Part shown: positions 9,701 through 34,427 of the stretch, piece by piece | Numbering within the stretch: position 1 is the first letter of the stretch | How the letters are laid out: every line of letters starts with the position of its first letter | IMG/VR virus record: IMGVR_UViG_3300023174_000122 | Location: 1-64,000 of that record | Origin: a virus | Direction: 5' to 3' (one strand) | DNA: 64,000 bases | The notes under the pieces: generated by a model | Told to the model about the DNA's origin: nothing | What the model saw: only the letters and a program-made list of their open reading frames with translations | The model's database searches: none | Program-made: the position numbers and the translations under genes

Positions 9701-11261
9701 AAGTTTTGCTCAAGACACAACATTTGGCGACTCGGCGCAGGGTGACTTTTTAGTTATTTCTGGTAATAATTTTACAGTCTACGGAAGTGGTAATTTTACT
9801 AGTGGGCTTTTTGTTAATGGCAACGCAGTACTAACTGGAGTTAATTTAACTCCATACGCAACAACAGCTAACCTCGCTTCAACTGGTTCAACTTTAACAA
9901 ATAGTATTAATTCATTAAGCGGAACTCTTACTGGAAATTACGCTACAATCTTAAATCTTGCATCTACTGGAAATACATTAAATACTAGAATAAATTCATT
10001 AAGTGGTACATTAACTGGGAACTATCTTACAACTTCATCTGCTTCTAGTGCTTATGCAACTATAACTAATCTAATAAGCACTGGATCTACTTTAAACTCT
10101 AATATAAATTCTTTAAGTGGTACATTAACATCAACTTATGCTACCATTACTAATCTCGGATTAACTGGTAGTACATTAGCGACTAATCTTGCTTCAACTG
10201 GCTCTACTTTAAATACAAGAATAAATAATCTCAGTGGCTATATAAATTCTTCAAGTAGTAATATTGTATTTACAACTGGCAATCAAACTATTAGTGGAAA
10301 CAAAACATTCCAAACTTCTCAAGTTAATATAACTGGATCTAGTTTAAACTTTGGAGATATTATTAACCTTGGAACACCAGTAATATTCACCCAAAGTAAT
10401 AATACTACAACCCAAGTAATTGATTCTATTGATACTAATGTTCAGATAACAAGAGGAAGTCGGTTTGGCATTTATAACCCAAGCCAAGAAGGTGGATGGA
10501 ATGGAAGTGGACCAATTTATACAGAATGGAATGGTGACGGATGGAGTGATTTAACTAACATTGCTGATAGAACTTATTATACTTTCTATGATTTAGCTCA
10601 AGCCTATGGACAAAACATAGGTAATTATATAGTTGGTAAAGAATTAGTAATGTATGATTATTATAATAATAAATATTATAAATTTTATTTTACAAACTGG
10701 CAACCAGGTGGATCAAGTTCATGGAATGGCGAAGAAGACGAAGGAGTTATTACTTATGCAGGTTTTGAATATACAAGAACAAGAATTTTTTCAGCTAATA
10801 AATCTGAAATTAATGGTTCAAATGTAGGTGGATATCTTGATCTTAAAAATAGACTTTTTATTAATGGCACAGGAGTTCTTTTAAGTGGAGAAGCTGGCAA
10901 AGTTCCCGATACGGTTGTACAAACTACTGGAACTCAAACTATAATTGGAAGTAAAGCATTTTCAGCAGCTACAACATTTTCAGCAGCATCAACATTTAAT
11001 TCTGCAGTTAATTTTAATAACAATATAACAGTAGCTCAAACTGGCATATTTAGTAGCATGGATGTATTTGTTGATGAGATGAGTATTTCTGGAATTAATT
11101 TAACACTAACAAGCGGCAATTTAATTTTAGCAGGTCCTACTGGAATACCATCAACTACAGGAGCAAGTGGAGTTAAGGGAACAATTGTTTGGAATACTGG
11201 ATTTTTATATGTTTGCACAAACACTAATTCTTGGCGCAGAGCAGCTCTAAGCACTTGGTAA
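6744..11261 (+). CDS. long repetitive fibre protein (head or tail fibre)
   Basis: Many ~29-aa repeats LASTGSTLxxxINSLSGTLTSTYATITN; six G(N/D/T)Q(T/S)IxGxK(T/S/I/A)F fibre motifs; short collagen GSQGPRGEKG; C-terminal GxKGxIxWxxxxLYVC...WRR module. Confidence 0.8.
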   Translation: MADFNVDVNLPSAINVDITSPTQALATNISIPGSQGPRGEKGNPTSINSLTAENIVITGVNGNTVYATGFNTIFISGNSGYFQSAINNLTTNLNSTGSSLQSNINTLSSNLNSTGSNLENKITSLSGDAVLEYGNQTIQGQKTFTEDLIVQKSGFFWSGIKIGLNSIIINEESIKISGDPVVVQSTFTGYTGDVSNTYATINSLVSTGSTLETKIGSLSGTLTSNYATITNLASTGATLTSSINSLNSAFTGFTGNLDTTYATDSQLATTGTTLVNSISSLSGTLTSNYATISNLASTGLKLVNTISSLSGTLTSTYATVTNLASTGSTLDAKINSLSGYVTGADATLITNLASTGSTLNSSINSLSGLFTGYTGTLDATYATDSQLQSTGTSLNNSITSLSGTLTSTYATISNLASTGSTLDNKIGSLSGTLTSTYATITNLASTGSTLNNSINSLSGTLTSTYATINNLASTGSTLQSNISSTGSSLDNKIGSLSGTLTSTYATITNLASTGSTLNTKINEFSGYVNTQDTSISNNLISTGNTLQNSINSLSGSSVLLYGDQSIGGVKTFRDNVYINNLFVTGTETIISTNNFNVQSPYLLLNLTGGAVDGGIFFVTGSGLTGINNSGPIIGFDHSNKFKFGVSTRNSDLSTLPDIASVQDITAYSGFVDGKYSTIINLASTGSTLSTNLASTGSTLQTNINNLSNTYATITNLASTGSTLVTNLASTGSTLNTKINNLSGYVNSTGSNIVFTTGNQTISGDKIFKNNIVIEQTGIFSAIDLSDTDSILLSGIDIQIVSGSMTLTNPPTISGNPFITGNLALYATTINLASTGNTLNSNINSLSGTLTSNYATITNLASTGSTLVTNLASTGSTLNSNINSLSGTLTSTYATISNLASTGSTLATNLANTGSTLNSSINSLSGTLTSTYATINNLGSTGNTLVTNLASTGSTLNTRINNLSGYINSTSSNIVFTTGNQTISGVKSFAQDTTFGDSAQGDFLVISGNNFTVYGSGNFTSGLFVNGNAVLTGVNLTPYATTANLASTGSTLTNSINSLSGTLTGNYATILNLASTGNTLNTRINSLSGTLTGNYLTTSSASSAYATITNLISTGSTLNSNINSLSGTLTSTYATITNLGLTGSTLATNLASTGSTLNTRINNLSGYINSSSSNIVFTTGNQTISGNKTFQTSQVNITGSSLNFGDIINLGTPVIFTQSNNTTTQVIDSIDTNVQITRGSRFGIYNPSQEGGWNGSGPIYTEWNGDGWSDLTNIADRTYYTFYDLAQAYGQNIGNYIVGKELVMYDYYNNKYYKFYFTNWQPGGSSSWNGEEDEGVITYAGFEYTRTRIFSANKSEINGSNVGGYLDLKNRLFINGTGVLLSGEAGKVPDTVVQTTGTQTIIGSKAFSAATTFSAASTFNSAVNFNNNITVAQTGIFSSMDVFVDEMSISGINLTLTSGNLILAGPTGIPSTTGASGVKGTIVWNTGFLYVCTNTNSWRRAALSTW

Positions 11262-11264: not shown

Positions 11265-13457
11265 ATGGCCAAAATATCAATTAAAAAATATACTGATCCA
11301 TATATTAATAATGTTTGTTTATTTCTTCCATTTAATAGTAATTTTAATGATAATTCAAAAAATAACTCTTCTGTTACTGCATATGGAAATCCACAGATTA
11401 GCTCGACTCAAAGCAAATTTGGAGGGGCATCGGCTTATTTTCATGGATATGGAGATTATTTAGACGTTTCTAATTTGCCTAGCGATTATTTAAGTCAAGA
11501 TTTTACTATTGAAGCCTGGGTTTGGATAGATGACTCTAAATATAATTCTTGTTTATTTAATACATTTCCACACAACTCTTTTGGAGTTAGTTTAAATAGA
11601 CAAGATGCAGGACGTAAAACATCTTTTGGTATTGGTAATGGTACATATTGGTATGCAGGAATTGAGAGCGATACTCTATTATCTTTTAATACATGGCAGC
11701 ATATAGCTTTCGTAAGAAGTAATAATACTATAACTTTATATGAGAATGGAATAGCTCGTGTTTCTACTAATTATCTGCCAACTGGATTTGGTACTTCTTG
11801 CAGAATTGGATCAATCACATGGATTTATGGTTTAAATAACGAAGAATATAAAGGCTATATGCAAGATTTTAGAATCACAAAAGGAATAGCAAGATATACT
11901 TCTAATTTTACGCCAAGATCAATCCTACCAAATAATGATAAATTAAATATTAAAAAAATAATAGAAGGCTCTCAAGTATCCTCTCTTTCAGGACTCTCTC
12001 TTTGGTTAAAAGCAGACGCAGGAGTAACTATGGGAGGAGGCAATGTAAATACTTGGGCAGATCAAAGTCCAAATGGAAATAATGCTACTGGTCCAGCTAC
12101 CAAAAAACCAACTTTTGTTAGTAATGGTATAAATGGCAAACCAGCAATGTCGTTTAACGGAACAACACAATTATTTACAATCAATGATAGTAATTCTTTA
12201 GATCTAATAAGATTTTCAATTTATGTTGTTCTAAAAAGAAATGCAAATGGAACTGGTAATGAGTTTGTACTTGTAAAAAATCCAAATAATAGTAGTGATG
12301 CTCCAGTATATTACCACCTTGCAAAAGTGAATGGAAGTAATAGCAGGTTTATAGCATACACCACAAGTGGGTATGCGTCTAATATTGATACTCTTGTAGA
12401 TTTAGGAGATGGAGCAGCAAGAATAATGTCATTTATTTATAACGGAACTACCAATGATTCTTATGTAAATGGAATAAAAACCGACTCTACTTACGGATAT
12501 GGAGATATAATTACTTCCACAGGCTCTCTTCAAATTGGAGGATCTGATCAGTCGCTGAGTGGTGCTCAATGGTATTTCAATGGATATATTAGTGAAATTA
12601 TAATATTTAACAGAGCACTAAATACTACTGAACACCTTTCTGTAACGAATTATTTAAATGATAAGTATGCTTTATATACTTCCAGCAATATAAAAAATGG
12701 TAAATTAAAAATATTATTTCCAGAATTATCATTAGATCAAATCTTTTTGCGCCTTGAATCAGATAAAAATATTACTTTAAATGGTAGCAATGTATCTGCT
12801 TGGGGTGATTTAAGCGGAGGAACTAGAAACTTTTCTCAAGCTGCAGATGATAATCAACCAATATTTTTGAATGGAGGATTAGAATTTCAAGCAAGTCAAC
12901 AATATAACGATTCAAATGCAGATTATATGGAAAATACAAACAATCCTTCTGATATTAATAATATCACTGGACCATATACATTTGCTGTTGTAGCTAATTT
13001 AAATTTAGGTCTTTCTACTTTTATTAATGCTTCTTCAAATAATCCATATAGAAGAAAATTATCTTGTTATTATTATAATGACGGTGATACAAGTTCTTTA
13101 GGTATAAGCAATGGTCCTGGTGATGGATACGGATCATCTATATCTAATCCACCAATAGATATTGGACAGAAAAATATTATTATTATCAGAGTTGTATCTA
13201 ATACTCAGGTAGATTATTTCATTAATAATACTAAGATATCTCAAAATGATGCCAATCTTAATTTAAATCCTGGAATTACTACACCAACGCCACTCTATCT
13301 TGGGGCTGCAAGAGGATTCGGAGGAGGAGGATATAATGCTGAAGCTAGTTGGGGTAATCCAGTTATTTATGATTTATTTTTATATAATAAAAGTTTAACA
13401 GAATCAGAAGTGGTAGCATTAAAATATTATTTAAATAATAAACATGGTATATATTAA
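11265..13457 (+). CDS. multi-LamG/concanavalin A-like lectin domain virion protein
   Basis: DFTIEAWV...WQHIAFVR...GYMQDFRITKGIARY; LSLWLKAD...WADQS...GYISEIIIFNRAL...YLNDKY; a third similar domain follows. Confidence 0.8.
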   Translation: MAKISIKKYTDPYINNVCLFLPFNSNFNDNSKNNSSVTAYGNPQISSTQSKFGGASAYFHGYGDYLDVSNLPSDYLSQDFTIEAWVWIDDSKYNSCLFNTFPHNSFGVSLNRQDAGRKTSFGIGNGTYWYAGIESDTLLSFNTWQHIAFVRSNNTITLYENGIARVSTNYLPTGFGTSCRIGSITWIYGLNNEEYKGYMQDFRITKGIARYTSNFTPRSILPNNDKLNIKKIIEGSQVSSLSGLSLWLKADAGVTMGGGNVNTWADQSPNGNNATGPATKKPTFVSNGINGKPAMSFNGTTQLFTINDSNSLDLIRFSIYVVLKRNANGTGNEFVLVKNPNNSSDAPVYYHLAKVNGSNSRFIAYTTSGYASNIDTLVDLGDGAARIMSFIYNGTTNDSYVNGIKTDSTYGYGDIITSTGSLQIGGSDQSLSGAQWYFNGYISEIIIFNRALNTTEHLSVTNYLNDKYALYTSSNIKNGKLKILFPELSLDQIFLRLESDKNITLNGSNVSAWGDLSGGTRNFSQAADDNQPIFLNGGLEFQASQQYNDSNADYMENTNNPSDINNITGPYTFAVVANLNLGLSTFINASSNNPYRRKLSCYYYNDGDTSSLGISNGPGDGYGSSISNPPIDIGQKNIIIIRVVSNTQVDYFINNTKISQNDANLNLNPGITTPTPLYLGAARGFGGGGYNAEASWGNPVIYDLFLYNKSLTESEVVALKYYLNNKHGIY

Positions 13458-16061: not shown

Positions 16062-16880
16062 ATGGGAAATGTAACATACTATCCAGCACAAAAACTAACA
16101 GTTGGAGGAACAGAAATTAATCTAGTTCAAAGCGCCGATGTAGACTTCAGTATTAGTCGTCAAGACGTTTTTGAATTCGGCAATCTTTATGCTATTGATA
16201 ATATCCAAGTTGAACCACCTACTGCTACTTTAAATTTTTCTTATATTCTTGCTACTGGAATTAATAATCATACTCTTTTAGGTTTAAATAATTTTGATAC
16301 TTTATTAGGTGACGTAGCTGGCAAACAATATATATTGAGCGGAGCAGGAGCACTAACAATCCCTAGCGGACTAATAAGTTCTTATGCTGTAGAAGCTTCT
16401 GTAGGAAATTTACCAACAGTCACAGTTAGCGTTCAAGCTCTTGATGCTACATATGTTGCTGGAACTCCAAGTTATCCACTCGTAGGTACAAATTCTGATA
16501 TTAATGTTATTCGTCCAGACGAAATTGTTGTTACCATCGCAGGTACCGCATACGAATGTAGATCTTTTAGTTTCTCGCTTGATATCCCACGCGAATATAT
16601 AAATAAATTGGGTGCATTAACACCAATTGCTAATATTATTTCTGGTCCACCTAAAGTTTCAGTTGACGCAGAAATTATTCTAAGGGATAGCGCTAATCCT
16701 AAATTCGCTAATAATAGCAAAAATAACGTAAGTATAGCTTGCGGAAGTTTAACTTATACTATTAGTGATGCTAGATTAGCCAACTTCACAACTAATACAA
16801 CTTTAGATGACATCCAAGTTGCATCAATCTCACTAGAAGCTCCTGTCAAATCTGCTGCTGCAATTGCGATCCCTGGTTAA
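16062..16880 (+). CDS. major tail tube protein
   Basis: Strong SD; two-fold internal beta repeat (VQSADVDFSISRQDVFEFG / CRSFSFSLDIPREYINKLG); position before chaperones and tape measure. Confidence 0.7.
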   Translation: MGNVTYYPAQKLTVGGTEINLVQSADVDFSISRQDVFEFGNLYAIDNIQVEPPTATLNFSYILATGINNHTLLGLNNFDTLLGDVAGKQYILSGAGALTIPSGLISSYAVEASVGNLPTVTVSVQALDATYVAGTPSYPLVGTNSDINVIRPDEIVVTIAGTAYECRSFSFSLDIPREYINKLGALTPIANIISGPPKVSVDAEIILRDSANPKFANNSKNNVSIACGSLTYTISDARLANFTTNTTLDDIQVASISLEAPVKSAAAIAIPG

Positions 16881-17171: not shown

Positions 17172-17428
17172 AAAAATTAAAGTTTGATTTTCCTGCTCAA
17201 AGTATTATTGAGAATAATTTAGGCTTACAATCAATACAAAGAACATTATCTAGAGATTATAAAATATATAGCCCAAAAATAGAAACTTTAACAAGCAATA
17301 AATTTATATCTATATATAGCACTTGGGATACGAAAAGAAAAGAAGACTTTGTCAGAACTGTGGCTGGAAAAATTAATTTTAAAAAAGTTAAAACTTTTTT
17401 TGACAATCAAATAGGAGAGAATACATGA
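17168..17428 (+). CDS. hypothetical protein
   Basis: ATGA-coupled ORF. Confidence 0.55.
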   Translation: MKKLKFDFPAQSIIENNLGLQSIQRTLSRDYKIYSPKIETLTSNKFISIYSTWDTKRKEDFVRTVAGKINFKKVKTFFDNQIGENT

Positions 17429-18189
17429 TAAATCAAAAATATTTATATCACTTTACAGAAAATCAAGTTATAGAAAAAGAACAAATTGAAGAATCTAAAA
17501 ACGAACAAGGGGAATTAGTAAAAACTATAAAAACCTTGAAAGAAGAGAAACCGATAGAATTTGCAATTAAGAAACCCAATAGAGTACTTTTTGATGAAGC
17601 CGAACTATTCTATGGCGTGAAATTAGCAGATGCAATTAAAGCTGGTATGTTAACGAAAACATTAATGATAAAAAAATATGATAAAGATGGTGGGATTTTT
17701 ACAGAGAACGAGCTTGAAAGAGTTAAGGGTACACTAGAAGAACTAGGAAGAATCCAAAGCTCAATTGACGTTTTAAATAAAAAAGAAGAAAATAAAGAAA
17801 CCTTAACAGAAGATGAAGTTAAAGAAAAGGTAGATTTTGAAGCTCAAATTAAATCTCTAAGACTTGAATTAGTAGATATAGAAAATAGTAAAAATAGCTT
17901 GTTCGAACAAACAGCTGAACATCGTGCAAGAAATAAGATTATGATGTGGTGGGTTCTTCAATTAGCTTATAGAAAAGATGGAGACATTTATACTCCATTA
18001 TTTAATGATGGTTCATATGATCAAAAGCTTAAAAAGTATGATGAAATTGAAGAAGGTGATGATAACTTCATGAAAAGTATTGTAACTAAATTTGCCTATT
18101 TTATTAGTTTTTGGTATGCAGGTAAAGCCTCTAAACAAGAAGAATTTAAAGTCATAGAAGACTACTTAAAGGGAGAAGCAGGAGCTTGA
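17425..18189 (+). CDS. putative tail assembly chaperone
   Basis: SD AGGAG; acidic coiled-coil; two genes before tape measure. Confidence 0.55.
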   Translation: MINQKYLYHFTENQVIEKEQIEESKNEQGELVKTIKTLKEEKPIEFAIKKPNRVLFDEAELFYGVKLADAIKAGMLTKTLMIKKYDKDGGIFTENELERVKGTLEELGRIQSSIDVLNKKEENKETLTEDEVKEKVDFEAQIKSLRLELVDIENSKNSLFEQTAEHRARNKIMMWWVLQLAYRKDGDIYTPLFNDGSYDQKLKKYDEIEEGDDNFMKSIVTKFAYFISFWYAGKASKQEEFKVIEDYLKGEAGA

Positions 18190-19172
18190 TAGACTTAGCT
18201 GACAAGAAGCTTAAACTTTTATTTTTTGAGATATGTAGTGGCGCTTCAAAAGTTTCAAATAAAGATAAACAATTCTATATAAAGCACTTTGGCGATTTTG
18301 ATTCTGGAGAATTCGAAGAGTATTTTTTTGAGAATTATGAAATGGCTAAAAAAAGCGGTCTGCCTAACCTAGAAGAAAAAGAAAAATTCTTAATTGAACA
18401 GAACTATTGGACAAAAGATAAAAACAAAGAATTAGAATATAAAACGGCCAAGTTAAATAACTTAGAAAAAACACAATCAAAATTGTTTCTAAAAAGTCAC
18501 ATAGATAAAAATAAGAAAGAAATTCAAGAGCTCAGAAGTGACGTTAAAGAGTTAAGCAATGAGAAAAATGAACTCTTAGGCGTTTCAGCTGAAACATACT
18601 CTCAAAATAAACTCGAATATTTCTATATTTTAAATTCATTTTATAAAGATAAAGCTCTAAAAGAAAAACTATTTGATTTTTATAATGATGATGTAGATCC
18701 AAATGCTTATTATGAATATATTGTAATACATAACAAGACTATTGAAAAGTTTAATGTTGACAACATAAAGTCTTTAGCTATATCTTCATTTTTCCAAAAC
18801 GCTATAAGTACATCTAATGAAAATTGTTATTATCTATTTAATAAGCCAATATACTCATTGACTTATTATCAAAATAGTATATTCACTTATGGTAAATATT
18901 TTAGTAATATATTAGCTATGCCAGAAGCTAGAAAACTAGAAGATGGCATAAAGAACAATCCAGACAAACTAATAGAATGGTATACAGCTTTTATTAATTT
19001 TAAAAATAAAAACCCAAGTGGTTCTGGTAAAGGTCTGAGCTTTGTTATGGGCGCAAATAAAGAAGATATGGAGTATCTAAAGCAAGATTCAAAAATGGAC
19101 ATGAATGATATAGCAAATGCTAAAGGTGGCAAATTAGATATTCAAGACTTAGCAAAATTATCTAAAATATAA
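18186..19172 (+). CDS. putative tail assembly chaperone 2 (possibly -1 frameshift extension)
   Basis: TTG start overlapping the upstream stop; directly before tape measure. Confidence 0.5.
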   Translation: MIDLADKKLKLLFFEICSGASKVSNKDKQFYIKHFGDFDSGEFEEYFFENYEMAKKSGLPNLEEKEKFLIEQNYWTKDKNKELEYKTAKLNNLEKTQSKLFLKSHIDKNKKEIQELRSDVKELSNEKNELLGVSAETYSQNKLEYFYILNSFYKDKALKEKLFDFYNDDVDPNAYYEYIVIHNKTIEKFNVDNIKSLAISSFFQNAISTSNENCYYLFNKPIYSLTYYQNSIFTYGKYFSNILAMPEARKLEDGIKNNPDKLIEWYTAFINFKNKNPSGSGKGLSFVMGANKEDMEYLKQDSKMDMNDIANAKGGKLDIQDLAKLSKI

Positions 19173-19212: not shown

Positions 19213-22200
19213 ATGAGTGATATTATCATTTCGGTTGATGGAGATACAAGGCCATTAGAGTCTAAATTAGGCAAAATATCTTCTAAAACGATTAATTTAA
19301 ATCTAAAGGATAGCTTATCTCAGCCTTTAGGTAGAATCACTGGCAAAGTATCAGAATTTGATAAGTCTTTAGAAGCTTCTAATGCCCGCGTTTTAGCATT
19401 CGGAGCATCAGCAGGAGCAGTTTATGCGGTACAAAAAGCATTCTCAGAAGTCGTTAAGTCAACTATAGAAGTAGAAAAAAGCCTAGCAGATATAAATGTA
19501 GTTTTAAATGCTTCATCAAAAGACCTTGAAAGATTTAGTAATAGTTTATTTAATGTAGCCAAAAATACAGGTCAAAGTTTTGATGCTGTCGCTAAAGCTG
19601 CTACAGAATTTGCTCGTCAAGGATTAGGAATTCAAGAAACATTAAAGAGAACAAGTGATGCTTTAATTCTAAGTAGACTTTCTGGATTAGACGCAGCAAA
19701 AAGCGTAGAGACTTTAACAGCAGCAGTAAATACATTTAGTCGCGCTGGACTCACTTCAACACAAGTTATCAATAAATTAGCAAATGTAGACGCTAGTTTT
19801 GCTGTTAGTACTGGTGATTTAGCAGAAGCTATTAGTAGAGTAGGTAGCACAGCTCAAGATGTTGGCGTAGACATTGATCAATTAATTGCGTTAGTAACAT
19901 CTGCTCAACAAACCACAGCAAGAGGTGGTGCTGTTATTGGTAATTCATTTAAGACTATTTTTACAAGAATTCAAAGATCAGATACTCTTGATGCATTAGA
20001 AGGAGTTGGAGTAGCGGTTAGAGATTTACAAGGAAATACTTTACCAGCAATTCAAGTATTACAAAATTTATCTAAAGTATTCTATACTTTGAGTGATTCT
20101 CAAAGAGCTTCGATTGCAGAAACTGTTGGTGGCGTTTTCCAAATCAATATTTTAAGAGCTGCATTATCAGATTTAGGCAAAGAATATAATACTTATAATA
20201 GTGCTTTAGGAGTTTCAAGAAGTGCTACTGATCAAGCTATCAAAAGAAATGAAGCTTTAAATCAAACTCTTTCTGCTTTAACAAATAAAACTTTCGTTGG
20301 TTTAAAAGAAGCTGCTGCAAAAATAGGCGAAATCACTATAGCTCCTACTTTAAAAATGGGGATGGGAGGATTAAATTCAATATTAGATGAATTCAATAAA
20401 CCTCAAGAAACTCAAGGAGTTGGAACAAAAATTGCTACAGGAGTATTAACTGGAATTGGAAATTATTTTAGTGGACCAGGTCTTGCGTTAGTTGGTATGG
20501 CATTTATTAAAATATTTGGAGGACTAACTAAATTTAGTGCAGAAGCTCTTAAAAGTTTATTAGGCATAGCTAGTTCAGCAGATAAAATAGCAGCAGCTCA
20601 AGAAAGAGTAAATGCAATTTTAGCTCAAAATCCAAGTTTAATACAAGCGATTATTTCTAAAGAAAGTTCCCTTCTACAAGTAGAGGGAGAAATCCTAAAA
20701 ATTATACAAGCTCAAAATGCAGCAAGAGCAGTTGGAGCAAATGTTTCGTCGAGAATATCTCCAGCAGTAGCAGCTTTGCCAATGCCAAAAGTAAAAGTAA
20801 AATCTCATGGACATATTCCAAATTTTGCTGCGGCAGCAATGCAAGAAATGATGGGCGCATATGCTGGAGGATACGAACCAGGAGATGTTAAAAAAACTAA
20901 TGGGATGTATTATAATACTGCAGAATCATTAGTGCAATTTCCTGGAGCAAATGGTCCAGCTATAGTTCCTCCACAAAATAGTGATGCTGGAAAAAATTAT
21001 AGAAAAGAATTTCAACGTTCTGCTGGATTTGATCCTTATGCATCAAATGGATTTATTCCTAATTTTGCAGATAAACCAATTATAGTAGATCCAAACATAA
21101 ATACTAAAGTTGGTATGATATACCCTAAGAAAGAAGATAAACCAGGCATAGGTACTGGAATAGCAGAATATGGGAAAGGCGAATCAAAACAAAAAGTTAA
21201 AATATCATTTCCTAAATCTGGTTATAATGTTAAACAGGGAGTAAAGCCTAAAGATGTAGATTTAGAAAAACAACTTGGTGATAAAATAGTAGAATTTACT
21301 AATAGTTTTTCATCAAGAATATTCCAAGGTAGCGGACAACAACCAAAAATATCTAATATAAATCAATTATCCAATGCTGGATCATTTAAAAGTATTACTG
21401 GGGCAGTTTTTGAATCAGCAGTAGGGCTTGCTACAGGCTCTTTAAACGAAGGCCGAGCTCAAAATGCACCAATAGATTTTGCTTCGCCAACCACAGAACT
21501 TAAAAAATTATTTAATGGACTCCAGGCTTCTCAATATGAAGCAAAAGTTAACTCTAATCCAGATCAAGTTAATAGTGTTGCTCAAAAGATATTAAATCTA
21601 GGATTAGTTTCTGGAGGTCTAAAAGGGAAAATAGCTAAACAATTAGGTCCAGATTATAAAAAAGAAACTAATCAAAAGGTGCTTGGTTTAGAAAGAAACG
21701 AGTTGGAAAGGATAAGAGATTCAGGAGGCAAATTAACTCCAGAGCAATCAAATAGATTAACTAGATTAAATAGTTTGAAAAAAAATAAAGCTGCTGCTGG
21801 CTTTATACCTAATTTCTCTGCTCTTCAAGAAGCTATGCAAAGAGAACAAGCCGCTGGAATAAATCCAAGTCAAATTAGGGTTGGATCAGATTCATCTTTA
21901 GCTGGAAAAGATAATCCATATGGACTTGGAATTTATAATACAAAAGACGAACCAGCAGGATTAAAGCAAGGAATAAATAGATCAAAAGGACATATACCAA
22001 ATTTTGCTATGCCAGTTGCAACGCCTGGAGCAGGAAGCATACCAGTTCCAGAAATGAAAGAACTTGGAAAAAGCGCGAAAGATGCATCAACTGCTCAAGA
22101 AAAACATACCGCTAAAATGCAACTTGCTCAAGGAAAACTACTCGCTTTTGGAATGGGTATGTCAGTTCTTCAAGGCACAATGATGCAATTTGGAGATCAA

Positions 22201-24540
22201 ACTAGCAAATTATCTCAAGTGATGAATTCAGCTACTAGCGTAATTAGCACAGCTAGTACTGGTCTTGGTACATTTGGCACAGGTAAAGGAGGAATTGCTG
22301 CTACTGGAGGAATGTTAGCTATGCAAGGTGTAGCAGGACTATCTGCTTCAGCAGACAAACCACGCACAACCGAAATAGCAAAATTAAATGCCGATTTAGA
22401 TAAAATGAGAGAATCTGCTGGAAAATTAGATGGAGTAGTTAGTCAATTAACTCCAACTTTAAATGATTATGCAGCTGAAATGGAAAAGTCTTTACCAGAC
22501 CAATCTAAAGTAAAAGAATTTAAATCTGCTATATTAAATAGCATATCTACTTTAGGTCCAGAGATGCAACAATCTATAATGAAAAATATATCTTCTCCTA
22601 AAGAGGTTCAAGGAACTTTAGCTAAAGCCCAAGAAAAAAGTGGAGCAGCTCAAGCAGAAAATCAATTATCTACTCAACTAAGTCAAAAACAACTATCAAT
22701 AAGACAAAATATGGGAGCTCAAGGACAAATTGGCAGAATATTAACAGCTGTTCCTGGTATGTCAGGAATAGGAGAGAAGATGATGAATAGGCAAGGCCCA
22801 GACAACGCTTTTAGCCAGCAAGAACAGGAATCTATTTCGGGTGATTTATTATCTCCATTGACTAAAACTACTGAAGGTACGGTAGCTTTAGCAAATAGTT
22901 TAGCTGCTACAGCTGGAAATTCAAATGATTTTTTTAAAAAATTAGAAAATGTATCTGCTTCCCTTGGAGTAAATACAGAATCTTTTGGAAAATTAAATTC
23001 TATTCTTGCTAGTTCTCCACAATCCGCTGGGGCACTTGAAAAAACTATAGTAAAAGCTTTAGAAGCTTCAATTAAAAAAGCAAAAGAATTAGCCCAACTT
23101 TCTGGTGGAGGAGCTACTACTTCAAAAAATTATACTGGAATTAGTAAATTATTTGGTAACACAAAAGAAGAGCTTTTACATCCAGCTGGAAAAAGTAGTT
23201 ATGAAATGGAAACAGCTTCGGCTGGATATCTTTACAATCAAACTAAAGATAAACCTGGTTTAGAAAATCTACATGGTGAAGCTGCTGGTCAATTAATGGA
23301 TCAACTTAATAAAGGTGGAGTTAGTTTAGAGCAAATTGAAAAACTTGCGCCAAATTTATCAAAAGATTTTCAAAAAATGGCTAGCAATAGACTAGAAAGA
23401 CAAAAAAGTGTTATGGGAGATGCTCTTACCGCTGGTGGAGCAAATCCAGAAGAAGTAAAAAAATTATTAGAAAATTTTAAACCACCCGATGCTGCTGAGA
23501 CATTAACAAAAGAACTTTTTGGTGAATTACCAGCAGATATAACTAAAATGGGAACTTTTATAGTAGCTCAAACCGCAGAGCAAATCAAATCAAATTCTGC
23601 CGCTGTTGCTTTAACAGATGCTTTAACTAACCTTAGAAGTGCAATTGAAAAAAATCAAAATCCAACAGCTAATGCGGCAGGATTTGCGGAAAATGCTACA
23701 AACCCAGAGACACCTAAACCAGATATCTTAAATAGTGCATTGGCTGGTGGTGGTATAATAACAGCTATAACTACTGGTGTTGTATCAGCGGTTGGATCTT
23801 CTTTGGTTAGTAAAATGCTTGGCACAGCTGCAACTGCTGCTCCTGCGGTTGGGACTGCTTCGACTACTGCAGTTGGGGCTACTACGACTGGTGCAGTTAC
23901 AGGTGGGGTTGTTGGTGGTACTGAAGTTGCGGCTGGGGCTGCTGCTGGTGGTGCTGAAGTTGCAGCAGCTACTGGATTAACTACTGTTCTTGGCACAATA
24001 GCCGCTGGACTAGCAGCGTTTGCTGGTGGAGCAGCTGTTGGATATGGAGTAAGTCAAATATCTGCTGGAAAAGATGAGCAAGGCAACGATCAAAACGTGG
24101 CAGAGAAGTTGGGGGGTGCTATGTATAATGCCGCACCATCACTTTTTGGAGGTAATAGTGAACAAGATCAGCAAGCTTTAGACGATGATTATAATAAAAA
24201 ACTTGCTAAAGAAAACGAACGATCTAAAAAAATAAAACAACAAAAAGCACTAGAATCCGCTCCAAAAGTAGATCAACAAACTGAAGATCAAGCTAAATCA
24301 GCAGAAACAATTGCAAAAAAAGAAGCACCTCAGCAAAATCAAACAACTAATATAAATGTTGCCCCAAGTGTTAGTGTCTCACAAGTTGCCGCTACTGATA
24401 AAGCTGAACTTCAAAAAATGATAGAAGCAGAAGTTAAGAAATTTGGAGAGACTATTATTAAGATCGCAGATGATAGATCAAAAGCAAGATTAAGTGGCAC
24501 AGTCAATCCCCCACAAGCTATGCAAAGACAGATGGGATAA
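19213..24540 (+). CDS. tail tape measure protein (TP901-type core) with internal GxIPNF modules
   Basis: 1775 aa, Ala/Gly-rich helical; N-terminal EFARQG...LANVD...GAVIGNSFKTIFTRI TP901-like core; hydrophobic segments. Confidence 0.9.
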   Translation: MSDIIISVDGDTRPLESKLGKISSKTINLNLKDSLSQPLGRITGKVSEFDKSLEASNARVLAFGASAGAVYAVQKAFSEVVKSTIEVEKSLADINVVLNASSKDLERFSNSLFNVAKNTGQSFDAVAKAATEFARQGLGIQETLKRTSDALILSRLSGLDAAKSVETLTAAVNTFSRAGLTSTQVINKLANVDASFAVSTGDLAEAISRVGSTAQDVGVDIDQLIALVTSAQQTTARGGAVIGNSFKTIFTRIQRSDTLDALEGVGVAVRDLQGNTLPAIQVLQNLSKVFYTLSDSQRASIAETVGGVFQINILRAALSDLGKEYNTYNSALGVSRSATDQAIKRNEALNQTLSALTNKTFVGLKEAAAKIGEITIAPTLKMGMGGLNSILDEFNKPQETQGVGTKIATGVLTGIGNYFSGPGLALVGMAFIKIFGGLTKFSAEALKSLLGIASSADKIAAAQERVNAILAQNPSLIQAIISKESSLLQVEGEILKIIQAQNAARAVGANVSSRISPAVAALPMPKVKVKSHGHIPNFAAAAMQEMMGAYAGGYEPGDVKKTNGMYYNTAESLVQFPGANGPAIVPPQNSDAGKNYRKEFQRSAGFDPYASNGFIPNFADKPIIVDPNINTKVGMIYPKKEDKPGIGTGIAEYGKGESKQKVKISFPKSGYNVKQGVKPKDVDLEKQLGDKIVEFTNSFSSRIFQGSGQQPKISNINQLSNAGSFKSITGAVFESAVGLATGSLNEGRAQNAPIDFASPTTELKKLFNGLQASQYEAKVNSNPDQVNSVAQKILNLGLVSGGLKGKIAKQLGPDYKKETNQKVLGLERNELERIRDSGGKLTPEQSNRLTRLNSLKKNKAAAGFIPNFSALQEAMQREQAAGINPSQIRVGSDSSLAGKDNPYGLGIYNTKDEPAGLKQGINRSKGHIPNFAMPVATPGAGSIPVPEMKELGKSAKDASTAQEKHTAKMQLAQGKLLAFGMGMSVLQGTMMQFGDQTSKLSQVMNSATSVISTASTGLGTFGTGKGGIAATGGMLAMQGVAGLSASADKPRTTEIAKLNADLDKMRESAGKLDGVVSQLTPTLNDYAAEMEKSLPDQSKVKEFKSAILNSISTLGPEMQQSIMKNISSPKEVQGTLAKAQEKSGAAQAENQLSTQLSQKQLSIRQNMGAQGQIGRILTAVPGMSGIGEKMMNRQGPDNAFSQQEQESISGDLLSPLTKTTEGTVALANSLAATAGNSNDFFKKLENVSASLGVNTESFGKLNSILASSPQSAGALEKTIVKALEASIKKAKELAQLSGGGATTSKNYTGISKLFGNTKEELLHPAGKSSYEMETASAGYLYNQTKDKPGLENLHGEAAGQLMDQLNKGGVSLEQIEKLAPNLSKDFQKMASNRLERQKSVMGDALTAGGANPEEVKKLLENFKPPDAAETLTKELFGELPADITKMGTFIVAQTAEQIKSNSAAVALTDALTNLRSAIEKNQNPTANAAGFAENATNPETPKPDILNSALAGGGIITAITTGVVSAVGSSLVSKMLGTAATAAPAVGTASTTAVGATTTGAVTGGVVGGTEVAAGAAAGGAEVAAATGLTTVLGTIAAGLAAFAGGAAVGYGVSQISAGKDEQGNDQNVAEKLGGAMYNAAPSLFGGNSEQDQQALDDDYNKKLAKENERSKKIKQQKALESAPKVDQQTEDQAKSAETIAKKEAPQQNQTTNINVAPSVSVSQVAATDKAELQKMIEAEVKKFGETIIKIADDRSKARLSGTVNPPQAMQRQMG

Positions 24541-24546: not shown

Positions 24547-26226
24547 ATGGCATCTTTTAATATATCTTTAGATTATCCAGAAATTACAAGCGCCACAAAG
24601 AGCATAGAAAAAAATCAAGCAAATATATTATTAAAAACCGTACAAGATATCACTGTTAAGGGGAATTTACTAGCGATAAATAATCAGTCTGATTATGCCG
24701 CAATATGGGATCAAATTAATGCTATAAGTGATAACTCTAGCGCAAAAAATTGCACTCTTAATTTTGCAAATCTAGTTTCTTACTCTGGAGCTAAAATATT
24801 AAATATAAATTTTGATGAAACAAAAAATCAAGACGTTAAGAGCAAAAACTTTTCTATAACTTTCCAAATATATGAAGCAGTTACAAGTTCGATGTTAACA
24901 TCATACGGTGTGTCATTAACAGATTTAAAAGATTTAGCAGATGTTAAAATAACGCAATCCAAAGAAGACAATATGGAGGGAACTAATTTAATAACTTCTG
25001 TGAATTTATCTTTTAATGAAAATGCAAGTACCTTTTCAAAAGGTAGAGCCGAAGCAATTAGTAAAGTTATACTTGCCGCAACAAACGCATTAACTCTTAC
25101 TGCTTCTAGAACAACTTCTTCTAATATATATGATGAAAAAACTGCATCTTATACATTCATAGAAACAAAAAACAAATTCCGAGGAAGCTCAGGCGGATTT
25201 GCAATTTTAAGATCTAATAATTATAACATTCAAAATAATGGAGCAATTAATGTAACAGAAACTGAGCAAATAAAAATTGAAAAAAATACTTATACGATAG
25301 GTGAACTTTATAGTAAAGCCGATTCAGATGCTAATGCAGCTAGAGGTAGATGTATAGCTTTTATAAACTTGTATTATAATATATCATATGGAGCTGTTCC
25401 ATCTCAATATAGAAATGTATGGATTGAATCAAGTAGGCAAATAACAGTAGACGAGGCTCCAGGAACAGCTCAATATACAGTATCTATAACTAATGAACCA
25501 GAATACGCCAACAATGTTAGAGTAGAGATTGTAAATACTATAGAAGATCTTAAAAAAGAAGACTCAAAAAGAAAAATAACAAGGGGCACTATAACTGGCA
25601 TAGGAAGTCCTCCAAATAAAGAACTTGCTCCTGCAAGTAATAAAAAATTATCATATGCAAAAACTTATTTTGATACTAATTATAAACCTAAATTTGTACA
25701 GGCAAAAACTTATACAGATAGGACAAGTGAAGTAAGTGGAGCGAAATATAAAACTTATATTACAAATGGAGATGTTTCATATAATATAAGTGAAGGCTCT
25801 ATAAGCTTTAGCCTAACTTATGAAAGTAAACCAACTTTTACAGTGAAAACTGCGACCATGCTACATGGTTCGGCAGAAATATCAACTGAATCTGCAGTTA
25901 ATTTAGCAAATCAATTTATCGTAATTGGAGGACTTTCGCCAGGAGAAGAACTAATACAACAAGGCGCGCAAGCCAAACCAATAAATGAAAACTTAAAAGT
26001 GCAAGGTGTTTTCAAAAGTGCCAAGGATTTACAAACTTATATATCTACTTTTAAAGATTTAGTAAAAAATGTTTACGCAAACGGAATTATTAGATCAATC
26101 AATGTCTCAGCTAATTTAATTGAAAGATCTTTTCAAGCTAGCGCATCTTGGTTTAAATTTGGTGAATATAGAGAGAGATCATCATTTGAAGCTAAAGTAA
26201 CCGCAAAAAGTGAAGTGCAAATATAA
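24547..26226 (+). CDS. tail tip protein (distal tail/hub-like)
   Basis: Beta-rich; directly after tape measure. Confidence 0.45.
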   Translation: MASFNISLDYPEITSATKSIEKNQANILLKTVQDITVKGNLLAINNQSDYAAIWDQINAISDNSSAKNCTLNFANLVSYSGAKILNINFDETKNQDVKSKNFSITFQIYEAVTSSMLTSYGVSLTDLKDLADVKITQSKEDNMEGTNLITSVNLSFNENASTFSKGRAEAISKVILAATNALTLTASRTTSSNIYDEKTASYTFIETKNKFRGSSGGFAILRSNNYNIQNNGAINVTETEQIKIEKNTYTIGELYSKADSDANAARGRCIAFINLYYNISYGAVPSQYRNVWIESSRQITVDEAPGTAQYTVSITNEPEYANNVRVEIVNTIEDLKKEDSKRKITRGTITGIGSPPNKELAPASNKKLSYAKTYFDTNYKPKFVQAKTYTDRTSEVSGAKYKTYITNGDVSYNISEGSISFSLTYESKPTFTVKTATMLHGSAEISTESAVNLANQFIVIGGLSPGEELIQQGAQAKPINENLKVQGVFKSAKDLQTYISTFKDLVKNVYANGIIRSINVSANLIERSFQASASWFKFGEYRERSSFEAKVTAKSEVQI

Positions 26227-27752
26227 TGAGCAATATAAGTTTACCATATGGTTTTTTAGAAGGCTCAAGTTTAGCTGATAAAAAGATTACAGCTTTTGCT
26301 ACCAAAAGAATAGAGCCAATATTTAATGGCCCAATTCAATACGCAAATAAGGTAGTGTTTACAATAGAAGGAGAATATCTTCCTCAAGGAGTTGAAGGGA
26401 ATATACCTAATCAAGCAACAATTGGTATTAAAACATTTTTAGATAGTTTTTCTACATTAAATAATGGTAATTGTACGCTTTCAAGTATAAATTTGAATGA
26501 AGCTAATTGGATTGGTCATATTCCATATACTGTAGAATGCGAATGCTATAGTTTCATGGATGATAATTTAAATAAGACTATAAATGCTAAAAATGAAATA
26601 AGTGTTACCGAAAATATAGATGGAACAATTTCTATTAATAGAAGTATAGACGTAAGTGCAATATCAATTGCTGGTTCAAATGCTCTAACTAACGCAAAAA
26701 CTTTTGCTCAATTTCTTAGTGGACAAACATCAAGTTGGAATTTAAATTACTCTACAAGCTCTAAAAATGGAACTTTTGGTTCAACTGTATTAAATAGTTC
26801 TTCAGAAACAGCAGACGTTACTAATGGAAGTTACAGTATACAACAAAATTTTACAGCTAATCTCTCAAACACGCATATAAACAAAAAAGCTATAGTAAAA
26901 AACAATATAGAAAAACAATCCAGTATTGATGGATTGGCTACGTTAAATATAAAATCTAGCGTTATAGGAGGAATTAATTCATCTGAACTAGAATTAAAAA
27001 GTCTAGCAAAAACAAACGCTTTTTCTCCTCCTGCAGATTTTTATTTAATATCAAATACGACTAGTTATGATGATGTCCAAAAAACAATTGAAATTAATAC
27101 TGTTTATTCTAATGATTTAACTATAACTAAAAATGGAAATAAAGTCACAAATAGTTTAAGTTTTAATTATGATTTTTTTGCTCAAACTACAAGCGCTTCA
27201 TTTAATTCTGAATCTAAACCAGCTACAGTAATAAAATCTACTAACAATACAAAAGCAGATTTATCTAAAGACATTTCAAAACAAATAAAAGATTATGATC
27301 CTTTAGGACAAAATCTTATCTTAGAGGGCGCAAGCGATAGCGATAGTATTTTAACCCAATCATCAGCATATTCAGAAAATTATATATCATCTCCTGCTGT
27401 GCAAGGTGGTTCGCAAGGTATATCTATGCATGATCTTAGCTGTAATATTGATTATCAGGCTGGATTTCCACAGAATACTTTTGCACCAATTTTAAGTGGT
27501 AAAGGTGAATATTACCTTGAAAATTTAGATTTTGTTAACAATTCAGTCTTGACTGTTTCAGTGCAAGGAAAATATGTTACTACTCCACCTACCGTAAGCT
27601 TTTTTAAAGATTTTGTAACAAGCGGGGAAATAGTCAAATTAAGCAAAACTTTATTATTAAAAGACGAAATTTCAATTGACCATAAAAATAGAACTTTTAA
27701 TTATACAAAACAAACCGTTGGAAATGATTCAACCTTCAAGGATATAACATGA
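26226..27752 (+). CDS. tail tip protein, probable paralog of upstream gene
   Basis: Similar size; ENIDGTISINRSI vs IQNNGAINVTETE. Confidence 0.4.
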   Translation: MSNISLPYGFLEGSSLADKKITAFATKRIEPIFNGPIQYANKVVFTIEGEYLPQGVEGNIPNQATIGIKTFLDSFSTLNNGNCTLSSINLNEANWIGHIPYTVECECYSFMDDNLNKTINAKNEISVTENIDGTISINRSIDVSAISIAGSNALTNAKTFAQFLSGQTSSWNLNYSTSSKNGTFGSTVLNSSSETADVTNGSYSIQQNFTANLSNTHINKKAIVKNNIEKQSSIDGLATLNIKSSVIGGINSSELELKSLAKTNAFSPPADFYLISNTTSYDDVQKTIEINTVYSNDLTITKNGNKVTNSLSFNYDFFAQTTSASFNSESKPATVIKSTNNTKADLSKDISKQIKDYDPLGQNLILEGASDSDSILTQSSAYSENYISSPAVQGGSQGISMHDLSCNIDYQAGFPQNTFAPILSGKGEYYLENLDFVNNSVLTVSVQGKYVTTPPTVSFFKDFVTSGEIVKLSKTLLLKDEISIDHKNRTFNYTKQTVGNDSTFKDIT

Positions 27753-30700
27753 AAAATAGTACTAAATATTTTTTAAATAATCTTAGCGTCGGGACCGAGG
27801 ATTATATATTGCATTATATGTTTGATAGCGATAATTTTAGTGGAAATTATTACGTATATAATAATTCTACTTATGAAGATTATACTGGATATTATTCTGG
27901 ATCAAATTTAACCAATAATTTAAATAAACAAACTGGATATTTATATTTTACTGGCACAAGTAATTTAAAGATAAACCTTAAAGACTTTCAGAGCGATTCT
28001 TATACATTTTTGCTATCTTACGAAAGAACTAACAATAGTCCTTGTGTGTTATTTTCTAATTTAAATACTGGCGCTAATGGTCAATATTACGGTTTTAATG
28101 CTTGTGTTAATAGCTATAATAATCTTTTAATTGAATATTATGATTCTAATAAAGAATTAAAATATCTTTCTCCAAAATACAATCTAGACACAAAAGGGAT
28201 TATTAGCTTTAGGGGTTACGCTGATAATATTTTCTTGAGTTATTATAATGCTGCATATGATGATTTATTTACTGAAGCTTTTTCTATTGATAATAATATT
28301 TCGCCAAACGTAAGTGGTTTAATAGTCTTGGCTAGCGGAAAGTTTTCTAACTTACCAAATTATAGTGGCTACATCAAAGACTTTATCTTTATCGACAAAA
28401 ACATAAATGATTCTCAGTTAAATAAAATTATAGATCAATTCACTTATAATTTAAAAACATACTATACTTTTGAGAAAGGCGCAGAATCTTACAGCTATAG
28501 TAATTACCCAGAGGATGTTACTCATGTTTTTGATAGTTATGTTGATGTAACTGGTTGTTTTAATAATACATTTTTAGATAATACTGGAGTAATTTATGGC
28601 AGTATAACAGGAAGTAATTATAGTTTAGATCTTACTGGAATCACTGGATACAATTTAACTACTCCACAAAATTTATTATTATTAAAAAATAAAATTAAAA
28701 AATTTGAATATTTTGGGGATGGAACAGCTTTAGCTTTATTACAAGATAATACTATTACTGGATGGGGAAGTAATGATCAAGGATCTCTTTATGGAGTTAC
28801 TGGATACGCTGGACATTGGACTGGATCTCCAGTTGGAAAACTAACAAATATAACAGACATATCTTGCAAAAATAATTTTTGCTTTGCCTTAAAAGATGAT
28901 AATACGGTAACTGGGTGGGGAGATAATGGTTACGGAAAGATATATGGCACAATATTATATACCGATCCAATGAATAACATTTTTACTGGAAATTATAGTG
29001 ACACTCCACTTGGCCAATTAACAGATATTACTAGTGCTAAAGTTGGATATAATCATTCATTATTCTTAAAAAATGATGGAACATTAATTATTTGGGGAGA
29101 TAATAGTTTTAATCAAGTTGCATTTATTAATGATAGAGAGAATTTAAATTATCCTCTTAAAATACAAATTACTGGCATATATAATGATTGGAGCTATCTT
29201 TCTGGATTAACTTTAAACTATACTGGACAATATAACTCTAAACCAGCATATAAATATACCAATGATCTTGAAAATTTTGGTCTTTCCTTATATAACAATA
29301 CAACTGGCTGGATTTTAGATTATGGTAGTTTATCTGATGTTATTGAAATTACTGGTAATACAAGCTTGCCAACAAACAACAATTTAAATATTCCATATCA
29401 AATAGTAATTGAAAATAGTCAAGATACAGGAATTAATGGATTATATATTTATAGAAGTGTAGATTCAATTTATTGGAAAGATGGCACTAACTCTAATGTG
29501 ATCATTGGAAATGATGGAGGATATGGTAATAACGTATGGGGTATTGAATCTTACGGAGATATAGTTTATTTTAATAGTGGAATTGGTTCGCCAAGTTTAT
29601 TTCCTTTAACTGGTTGGAGTGGAAATAATGAATTTGATTACTATGGTGATATTACTATCAAACCAAAATATGTTCAATTGGATTATGTATATAATAGTGA
29701 TACTGAAGGAAGATTTACTGGAGTTTTTGAAGAGACTTTGATAGCTCAATTAACTGGAATATCAAAAATATCTGTTGGAGGATATCATAATGTAGCTTTA
29801 AAAGCAGATGGAACTGTAACTGGTTGGGGCGGAGAAGGTCTTGACGCAAATCCAAGAGGTGGAAATGGCTTAACTGGAGTATTAGATATTGCTGCTGGAA
29901 CTACTCATACAATAGCTATATTAAATACTAATAACTCAATAACAGGTTGGGGAGATGATATGCATGGTCAAGCTGGTGATCCACTTGGTTTAACTGGCGC
30001 AATTCAAATAGATGCTGGATTTAATTTTTCTACTATTCTTTTAGCAAATAAAAATTTAAATTATTATGGATTAGTAGGATTTGGTAATTTCTTAACAAAT
30101 GTTAAAAAATATAATAGTTCAGAATATGGAACGTATGCAGAATATATAACTGGTCAACAAGTTAAAAATTTAGTTTCTGGTAACGCTTATTTTAATTATA
30201 CCATAGAAGTTGAAAGACCGACTATAGTAACAGAAACAATAACAACAATAGTTAGTCAAATTTCTGGTTATGAAAATCAACTATTATTTTCTGGAGTAAC
30301 TGGATACAATACTGGTTGGTATAAAGATATCCCAGATTTTTGTGGAACAGGATTTCCGCTTTATCTTATTTCTGGTATTATCGGAACTATCACGGGAGAT
30401 GTATTAACTGGAATTGATATAACCACTTCATCTTCTATTTCTCAAAGAGTAGTTCTCTCAAATCAAACTTATCAAACTGGATTTTCTTCTGGTATTTACG
30501 ACTCTCTCAAAACTGGAAATTATATTTATGAATTTAATTATACCAATAATGGTAATGATGTTAACGGATTAGAAAATTTATACTTAGATTCTGGTTATTA
30601 TACTCAACAGTCTAAAAATATTTTAGACAGAGAAAATTGCTTGATAACAAATAAAAATACCACCCTAAATTATAATAAAAATTATACTTTAGAGAAGAAC

Positions 30701-34400: not shown

Positions 34401-34427
34401 TTTGATAAAAATGCTAGAGGCATATAA
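31392..34427 (+). CDS. baseplate hub/tail tip-like protein with poly-Ser and Cys cluster
   Basis: GPLREVLTAWANDFGLNWYYD resembles hub (gp27/gpD-like) segments; two Ser9 tracts. Confidence 0.45.
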   Translation: MSTKNKVEAITLNGSNQYMGGKIYFCSFSPNFSEKPSEVQVNVISENGTYSKPNINFSAPVKVKIGKLDLGDMYPYKYKNRYSSQGNILEVSFIDPSFILDKIFVGLIGKHGWSTTFAKEIKESNEKTFSEALGIPSSSSSSSSSGVGEGTDIYHRVTDNFWLIGRQFHPCDENKDNVITHQEAYNVDPCDPCPSCPEDKYENRCKELAYTTIFEVGYCFQDLIDTVSSFKIKQGSTDITLETPQGLTIDQLNKFYRDYHGPLREVLTAWANDFGLNWYYDIKDKKIKFIDISSKEIQVDVKTTIAKYDKKSLISYDHEVSAENTSQRGAISWYERGGERKSADCSKANTVILSALYGADYLGNRSRTLLKGDDINSNTDIMGSILRAYNPLLRELFWQRAVYKMNKSSDLIDYINDFSIGAGSSSSSSSSSVPFGSFGDDNYEYQSSNNKILPELGDMQILAVIDCGLSKTDKEKTTFQKFANAQYEDLTRSMNTYDRIKFIQNSGFFVVAYINEDTLAKRYDMEDELYSFLGKFFIREHLFRLCGITGNDEFVKNNTNLESADGTATIYSKKDGIGSHPLSKYKFYKSGYLGCIVGSGNVSTTDPKSNKGAIGQSQGFQMQERQANGINTVQLQETPQKYVDAGGSAGSMISPEKGKESMSRFEQTAIILEREPKWYPEVQLFQDQYNDYINKNLSQMEWKLFGNNGMPPGSDWVTTAFGGNTGFLKSGIAGSIKVFVVETGDFPVYPLFQEDFGSTYSHPIDQTATASRKMLRRVGGKYSPQTPIGLLNNTCHKINFGKSKTLPEIYTPPHTFVKSTKKDLIEKDILSETKSQGAGGGAKSCDVGLGKEPHRVPAYRVYVSQSFSQAVTLPKIQTGVFSNMKCDTAVRNLNVSYTKLTDDDFKSYTGSNGYGCIPDTRYLDGINNAYTGNVFSNTVPDDSLNIEIKGLPDLQDYAQEIKQGLDSVNIQISDQGINSTLQYSTKMVKGISSDLLKFQNSRRFDKNARGI

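Follow-up and report, generated by a model that had tools for sequence, protein, structure and literature searches.

Tape measure proteins (TMPs) are usually viewed as rulers, sometimes equipped with a cell-wall hydrolase. Examples with a catalytic domain beyond the ruler function are T5 pb2, which carries a C-terminal metallopeptidase (PMC10038345), and SPbeta YomI, a TMP annotated with a transglycosylase. The present analysis concerns a TMP of 1775 residues encoded in a 64,000-nucleotide stretch of viral DNA (positions 1 to 64,000 of IMG/VR virus record IMGVR_UViG_3300023174_000122, hereafter the window), which appears to belong with these proteins in carrying cargo of a catalytic kind. The cargo of pb2 and YomI is fixed and attacks the cell wall, whereas that of the window TMP very probably lies in a cassette fenced by a short peptide motif, GxIPNF, the contents of which are exchanged by recombination among related phages, as judged from comparison of their sequences. 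Rulers of this family bear from one to more than 12 such exchangeable modules.

The closest analogy in logic is found among the polymorphic toxins of bacteria, in which a short demarcating peptide (VENN in CdiA, PxxxxDPxGL in Rhs) marks the start of the variable modules. Both there and here, a constant delivery scaffold is followed by a short peptide and by modules exchanged through recombination, such that near-identical backbones carry unrelated or barely related alleles. The CdiA/Rhs toxins are, however, bacterial and possess a terminal toxin domain with an adjacent immunity gene, whereas the module described here is internal, fenced on both sides, housed in a phage structural protein, and devoid of a co-varying neighbour in the loci compared.

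A further parallel is offered by the polyvalent proteins of phages and conjugative elements, large virion-associated proteins built of several effector domains that are believed to accompany the DNA into the host (PMC5512222). Relatives of the window TMP carry ART-PolyVal, a Pfam domain defined on those proteins, as well as a nuclease domain, SNase. Polyvalent proteins hold several effectors per chain; the window TMP holds one cargo domain, and its relatives up to ~15 motif-delimited segments. Processing of polyvalent proteins by a zincin-like metallopeptidase has been proposed (PMC5512222), whereas Pfam identified neither this nor any other peptidase family in the window TMP or the 10 relatives scanned. 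The carrier here is the TMP itself, with one fixed peptide fencing the modules, and TMPs are mentioned 0 times in the account of the polyvalent proteins (PMC5512222). No description of the system came up in full-text literature searches that targeted the motif or nuclease and ADP-ribosyltransferase (ART) cargo borne by TMPs; it is a real and widespread variant of the cargo-bearing TMP, and apparently an undescribed one.

The GxIPNF motifs and exchange at their borders

An earlier reading of the window from its letters alone (the sequence-only reading) had placed four copies of G[HF]IPNF in the TMP, at nucleotides 20809, 21049, 21799, and 21988 (residues 533, 613, 863, and 926), and all four were recovered at these sites. 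The resulting layout is as follows.

19213..24540, + strand: tail tape measure protein, 1775 residues (open reading frame (ORF), PF10145, PHROG matches, site downstream of the tail tube gene)
20809..20826, + strand: motif 1, GHIPNF, residues 533-538 (pattern search; modelled as a linker at a predicted local distance difference test score (pLDDT) <50)
20809..21066, + strand: module A, residues 533-618, a small alpha/beta bookend between motifs 1 and 2 (module hidden Markov model (HMM), E 3.5e-33)
21049..21066, + strand: motif 2, GFIPNF, residues 613-618, left border of the exchangeable cassette (pattern search, breakpoints)
21067..21798, + strand: cargo cassette, residues 619-862, between motifs 2 and 3
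21799..21816, + strand: motif 3, GFIPNF, residues 863-868, right border of the cassette (pattern search, breakpoints)
21799..22005, + strand: module B, residues 863-931, a small alpha/beta bookend between motifs 3 and 4 (module HMM, E 1.7e-32)
21988..22005, + strand: motif 4, GHIPNF, residues 926-931 (pattern search)

Across all six frames of the window, these four are the only instances of the pattern G.IPNF. The composition of the TMP would lead one to expect 6e-4 occurrences by chance, and only 17 of 20,000 shuffles gave one or more. A structural model of residues 520-945, built with 30 homologues, consists of three folded units joined by the four motifs, all of which are modelled as linkers at pLDDT <50. 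The segments from motif 1 to motif 2 and from motif 3 to motif 4 had been read as paralogous; this was upheld by profile comparison (hhalign 96.8%, E 2.4e-10) for the first ~28 columns only, that is, for the motif and the helix that follows it.

Evidence for exchange comes from TMPs that are otherwise nearly identical. Many pairs among the relatives fetched are 88-99% identical over their first ~630 residues and have cargo regions without a BLAST match to each other. P0042 and P0119 share ~97% identity over 1866 residues but only 5-30% across residues 621-854, the stretch bounded by motifs 2 and 3. Identity between P0174 and P0191 is 100% as far as motif 2 (GGYIPNYA), drops to ~15% beyond it, returns to 100% over the stretch that begins with motif 3 and ends with motif 4, and falls once more past motif 4. 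The same borders are visible in the DNA of three pairs of IMG/VR loci, in which the breakpoints fall 0-13 nucleotides from motifs 2 and 3. Homology between L107 and L109 extends from 19 to 10285, stopping at the last base of motif 2 (10268-10285), and is back at 11083, one nucleotide ahead of motif 3 (11084). That between L096 and L103 stops at 10285 (motif 2 at 10265-10282) and returns at 11012 (motif 3 at 11018), and that between L066 and L067 stops at 9335 (motif 2 at 9316-9333) and returns at 10047 (motif 3 at 10060). All six swapped alleles still match the HMM of the cargo core, with E values of 1e-15 to 1e-31. The proposal that GxIPNF modules delimit a swappable cassette is thus sustained at both levels, with protein and DNA homology breaking and resuming at motifs 2 and 3 in near-identical phages.

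Within ~8-10 kb on each side, no other replaced block was found in L107/L109 or L066/L067, and hence no adjacent partner gene co-varies with the cargo in these pairs. Compared with P0002, the window TMP is 98% identical in its N-terminal part, 100% in module A, 79% in the cargo, 99% in module B, and 89% in the C-terminal part; by these identities, the window cargo evolves faster than its flanks, a milder form of the exchange pattern. In P0007 (residues 619-723) and P0093, an extra motif-bounded segment of ~105 residues lies between module A and the nuclease-like cargo, and looks like the gain of a single module.

The layout is widely distributed. A word-indexed search with residues 520-945 returned 726 TMPs, and an exhaustive HMMER search 973 cluster representatives (at 50% identity), these being TMPs of 1500-5354 residues; the family with the GxIPNF layout is known from metagenomes alone. 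The motif stands at the same relative places in nearly all TMPs of the family. Its 1096 copies in 259 fetched relatives conform to the consensus [AK]-[SA]-x-G-[FYLH]-[IV]-P-N-[FY]-[AS], with G, P, and N invariant. Module HMMs revealed a common plan in 279 of 307 proteins, running from PF10145 through module A (~residues 530-650), a variable region, and module B to a long C-terminal part. Module A, modelled at pLDDT ~80, occupies residues ~530-650 in nearly all relatives; in an alignment of 31 sequences, E545 of module A (E26 of the modelled fragment) and E878 of module B (E359 of the modelled fragment) are each invariant.

The variable region is a single segment of 223-297 residues in TMPs resembling that of the window. 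Giant TMPs extend it to as many as ~15 motif-delimited segments, ~2500 residues in sum; in these proteins the motif, in as many as 18 copies, separates segments that are unrelated to one another and distinct from modules A and B. Clustering of 832 inter-motif segments from 259 proteins gave 116 groups, mostly small. Among the giants are P0236 (5354 residues), P0256 (5338), P0247 (5198), and P0226 (4959); some giant TMPs are encoded on contigs of 200-527 kb, and almost none of their segments matches Pfam. A search of 185,579 species genomes gave six matches, all on contigs of metagenome-assembled genomes (Proteobacteria, Neomarinimicrobiota, and Halobacteriovorax). These are probably phage DNA binned with bacteria, so that the host cannot be named.

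The cargo domain

The cargo of the window TMP is basic (residues 619-862: 38 K+R, 24 D+E, pI 9.8), as are most of its counterparts, with a pI >9 in 22 of 25 diverse alleles. Its parts are listed below.

21079..21648, + strand: folded alpha/beta core of the cargo, residues 623-812 (AlphaFold2 mean pLDDT 88.7, predicted template modelling score (pTM) 0.82, 50 homologues)
21412..21414, + strand: E734 codon, in a helix, context G..FE (invariant in 111/111 and 25/25 sequences)
21475..21477, + strand: D755 codon, hydrophobic-D-hydrophobic (invariant)
21538..21546, + strand: E776-A-K778, the (D/E)xK triplet in a short beta strand (alignment and model)
21586..21588, + strand: K792 codon, in the helix after the (D/E)xK strand (invariant)
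21649..21780, + strand: helical hairpin, residues 813-856, the most variable part of the cargo (fragment-model helices H294-317 and H324-337)

In the model, the core begins with four N-terminal strands and two long helices, the second of which bears G730, F733, and E734; these are succeeded by a loop ending at D755, a short helix, the short strand E776-x-K778, the K792 helix, and a last helix. The cargo is therefore predicted to be a globular alpha/beta domain rather than a helical TMP repeat, in agreement with the sequence-only reading. The hairpin that follows is only 0-34% identical to its counterparts in relatives, where the core keeps 49-71%. A sub-threshold match to an Xre-like antitoxin helix-turn-helix (PF20432; E 0.09-0.27) falls within the hairpin, at residues 822-852 (21676-21768).

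The proposed catalytic residues, E734 (in GAVFE), D755 (in PIDF), and E776/K778 (in YEAK), lie where they had been placed and are kept in homologues. None of 111 cargo regions departs from E734, D755, or K778, and position 776 is occupied by E (61 sequences) or D (50); the 31-sequence alignment shows K792 without exception. G730, F733, E734, D755, K778, and K792 are all invariant in 25 alleles that are 14-62% identical to the window domain. The conserved signature E ... D ... (D/E)xK of the PD-(D/E)XK superfamily is accordingly present in both sets. The order of the invariant residues, their spacing (21, 21, 14), and their hydrophobic neighbours fit this superfamily, and so does the modelled context, in which the E is helical, the (D/E)xK triplet lies in a strand, and the helix that follows bears the K.

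Recognised domains in the relatives occupy motif-bounded slots inside the bracket formed by modules A and B.

P0151: ART-PolyVal (PF18760), residues 619-790, between motifs at 610 and 802 (36.7 bits, cut-off 31.2)
P0272: SNase (PF00565), residues 2146-2243, between motifs at 2113 and 2315 (27.1 bits, cut-off 21)
P0122: DUF7178, residues 1342-1538, between motifs at 1312 and 1550 (above cut-off)
P0260: PcfJ-like, residues 1404-1519 (23.6 bits, just under the cut-off of 25)

The inter-motif cargo is thus polymorphic in homologous TMPs, as had been anticipated, with the first three domains above their Pfam cut-offs and the PcfJ-like one just below. The ART domain of P0151 comes directly after module A, which is the slot held by the nuclease-like domain in the window TMP. 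The cargo of the relatives thus includes enzymes acting on nucleic acids or proteins.

The explanation favoured here, with some reserve, is that of a TMP cassette system with exchangeable, enzyme-like cargo. Modules A and B, each opened and closed by G-[FYHL]-[IV]-P-N-[FY]-[AS], serve in it as constant bookends and homology arms, and the slot between them holds, in this phage, one basic domain of ~245 residues, the core of which keeps E...D...(D/E)xK...K while the other sequence diverges to ~15% identity. The cargo would most likely be a metal-dependent phosphodiesterase or nuclease of the PD-(D/E)XK kind, though a divergent one, and would ride unfolded or loosely folded in the lumen of the tail tube as part of the TMP, exit the tail with it at infection, and act on host or competing nucleic acid before phage gene expression. 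That the cargo is a ready-made enzyme of some sort is considered probable; a nuclease specifically is the best single guess, and one that could just as well prove wrong.

A number of observations weigh against this explanation. Structure searches and profile comparisons gave no recognisable link to the restriction-endonuclease fold that had been proposed for the cargo, and no fold could be assigned. Foldseek searches of the PDB with the 426-residue and 190-residue models gave nothing at E 0.001 or better, and BFVD gave no match. A wide structure comparison of the 426-residue model was dominated by a helical hairpin. Weak structural matches to the cargo included four members of the PD-(D/E)XK superfamily, with scores far under a meaningful level. 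Profile searches of residues 520-945 against Pfam, PHROGs, and PDB sequences returned nothing, nor did Pfam on the 25 alleles, and the ESM Atlas offered nothing usable for the core or module A. The one family compared by hhalign, YraN/UPF0102 (an alignment from 12 genomes), scored a probability of 0.1% with either the core or its catalytic half. The model departs from the canonical alpha-beta-beta-beta-alpha-beta arrangement in having long strands before the E-helix and in placing D755 at a one-residue bridge. The search for stand-alone homologues of the core found none outside TMPs, the sole returns being two fragments on tiny contigs. In cultured phages, a tblastn search of 50,697 phage records for the cassette gave no match; known phages match only the N-terminal PF10145 part of the TMP. 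In its folded state, a domain of ~245 residues is too large for the tail tube, which would have to take three copies of it in the case of a trimeric TMP. The cargo resembles the PD-(D/E)XK superfamily (restriction endonucleases, Hjc, YraN, and cap-snatching endonucleases) in residue order and context but not in any significant structural or profile similarity, and its predicted strand order is not canonical; it may be a very divergent or permuted member of that superfamily, or a new fold.

Two other identities for the cargo deserve consideration. It could be a non-enzymatic host-contact domain, for example one that binds an inner-membrane or periplasmic component for channel formation and DNA entry, with swaps that follow host variation as in receptor-binding modules, and with E, D, K, and K being structural or ligand-binding. 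In lambda and HK97, the need for the inner-membrane proteins ManYZ and PtsG is set by the TMP, and extreme allelic divergence inside TMPs that are otherwise 97-100% identical is typical of host-range modules; the missing nuclease match and the lack of a co-swapped partner or immunity gene near L107/L109 and L066/L067 likewise suit such a role. Four charged residues that stay invariant across alleles of ~15% identity are, however, seldom seen in binding surfaces, their order, spacing, and hydrophobic neighbours fit the catalytic E / hDh / (D/E)hK pattern, and relatives place bona fide enzymes (ART, SNase) in equivalent slots, which together leave the host-contact role rather improbable. Still less probable is another enzyme or ligand binder, such as a second-messenger phosphoesterase or a nucleotide sponge, acting as an anti-defence factor and not as a polymer nuclease. 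The basic character of the cargo would suit it, and polyvalent phage proteins have been reported with enzymes that target nucleotide signals (PMC5512222, PMC7824862). Against it, the structural matches to STING are as weak as those to nucleases, with a root-mean-square deviation >5 Å, and no sequence signature of a known family of this kind was found.

What the peptide may do

The four motif copies of the window differ from one another in their synonymous codons, so that the motif is conserved as a peptide and not as a DNA signal; a role as a DNA recombination signal was rejected for this reason. GxIPNF is an invariant peptide in a predicted flexible linker and marks every module border, including those between the unrelated segments of the giant TMPs. 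Given this recurrence between unrelated segments and the invariance of G, P, and N in 1096 copies, the peptide appears to be conserved on its own account, and such strict conservation at the peptide level implies that something reads it. The reader could be a protease, or a self-cleavage reaction, that frees the modules, or else a partner to which the peptide docks, for instance an assembly chaperone or the tail tube.

This argument has to be set against the view that GxIPNF has no function of its own, being just a conserved linker or edge strand that belongs to modules A and B. Recombination between diverged phages resolves only inside conserved sequence, and breakpoints at the border of conserved and variable regions are thus expected in any case; the motif is also modelled as disordered and without contacts. 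A linker and nothing else would, however, sit poorly with a motif repeated up to 18 times between unrelated segments and unvarying in three of its residues, and this view is held to be unlikely.

Cleavage at the motif is a tentative proposal, and the precedent is again T5 pb2, which has the only mapped cutting site of a TMP; the cut, after R1127, separates the enzyme domain from the ruler (PMC10038345). By eye, the pb2 cut site (..NSFVPR|AEGGMMYPG..) loosely recalls module A (GFIPNF|A..E..GA..GGY.PG), with 3-4 residues alike, namely a shared F-[IV]-P and the A that follows. The HMMs of modules A and B gave no match on T5 pb2, a blank at the cleavage site that also suits the linker view, and the likeness is a lead only.

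Were cleavage to occur, a bolder version of the favoured cassette system could be entertained, in which the TMP is a plug-and-play effector vehicle whose GxIPNF sites are cut, by self-cleavage at the invariant Asn or by a protease, and pre-made enzymes are freed in the host during exit of the TMP from the tail; this is offered speculatively. It is equally conjectural that phages locked in an arms race with host defences would shuffle these enzymes at the motif, constituting, by analogy with CdiA/Rhs, a polymorphic-effector system of phages. The freight of such a vehicle might comprise a new nuclease-like family here, and an ADP-ribosyltransferase, SNase, and many uncharacterised domains in relatives, a suggestion that should be received with similar caution.

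Genome setting and significance

The source record is 85,343 bp long with an estimated completeness of 56%, and derives from a large uncultured phage with a long tail. The features that place the TMP in its tail gene context are given below.

16062..16880, + strand: tail tube protein gene (PF18906 Phage_tube_2, E 4.7e-8)
19558..20133, + strand: PhageMin_Tail domain (PF10145) of the TMP, residues 116-307 (Pfam)
20464-20541, + strand: third hydrophobic stretch of the TMP, residues 418-443 (Kyte-Doolittle scan)
23725-23823 and 23950-24054, + strand: two Gly/Ala/Thr-rich hydrophobic stretches of the TMP, residues 1505-1537 and 1580-1614 (Kyte-Doolittle scan)

The match of the TMP to PF10145 has an E value of 2.8e-28 and 99.6 bits, against a Pfam gathering cut-off of 33.2, and 15 of the 16 PHROG families matched are annotated as tape measure (best E 6.5e-53). 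The ORF follows the tail tube gene, with two small ORFs (17425-19172) in between. Domain, position, length, and hydrophobic segments all fit, and the ORF is a tail tape measure protein of the TP901 / PF10145 type. By analogy with the hydrophobic stretch of T5 pb2 (PMC10038345), the two C-terminal stretches are candidate membrane-inserting segments, which would put the cargo N-terminal to them. The database cluster representative P0001, listed as 100% identical, differs from the window TMP at 4 of 1775 residues, one of which falls in the cargo (K for I, ~residue 664).

A search limited to part of the window identified no tail sheath gene. A 730-residue ORF (11265-13457) that precedes the tail tube gene matches PHROG families with the annotations baseplate wedge subunit and virion structural protein (E 1e-19 to 1e-40); it is oddly placed, as the phage otherwise appears non-contractile. 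The ORFs at 6744-11261 and 37518-42029, of ~1500 residues each, have no significant PHROG match apart from one 26-residue match (E 0.0008), and those at 24547-36520, downstream of the TMP (559, 508, 1217, 1011, and 697 residues), have none, the first two being blank in Pfam too. The large unmatched ORFs near the TMP are presumably tail tip or fibre proteins. GC skew and gene orientation both flip at ~51500, with + strand ORFs up to 51533 and - strand ORFs from 51530.

Should the modules be delivered, the TMP would represent a new route by which ready-made phage enzymes enter the host ahead of gene expression, with an attack on DNA, the modification of proteins, or the defeat of defences among their possible actions. 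The family would then also be a rich source of uncharacterised effector domains, with >100 segment families in 259 proteins. The E/D/(D/E)xK/K domain may be a highly divergent new branch of the restriction-endonuclease fold, or a new fold, and the fixed peptide together with the constant bookends suggests a design, offered by nature, by which phage tails could be loaded with foreign proteins.

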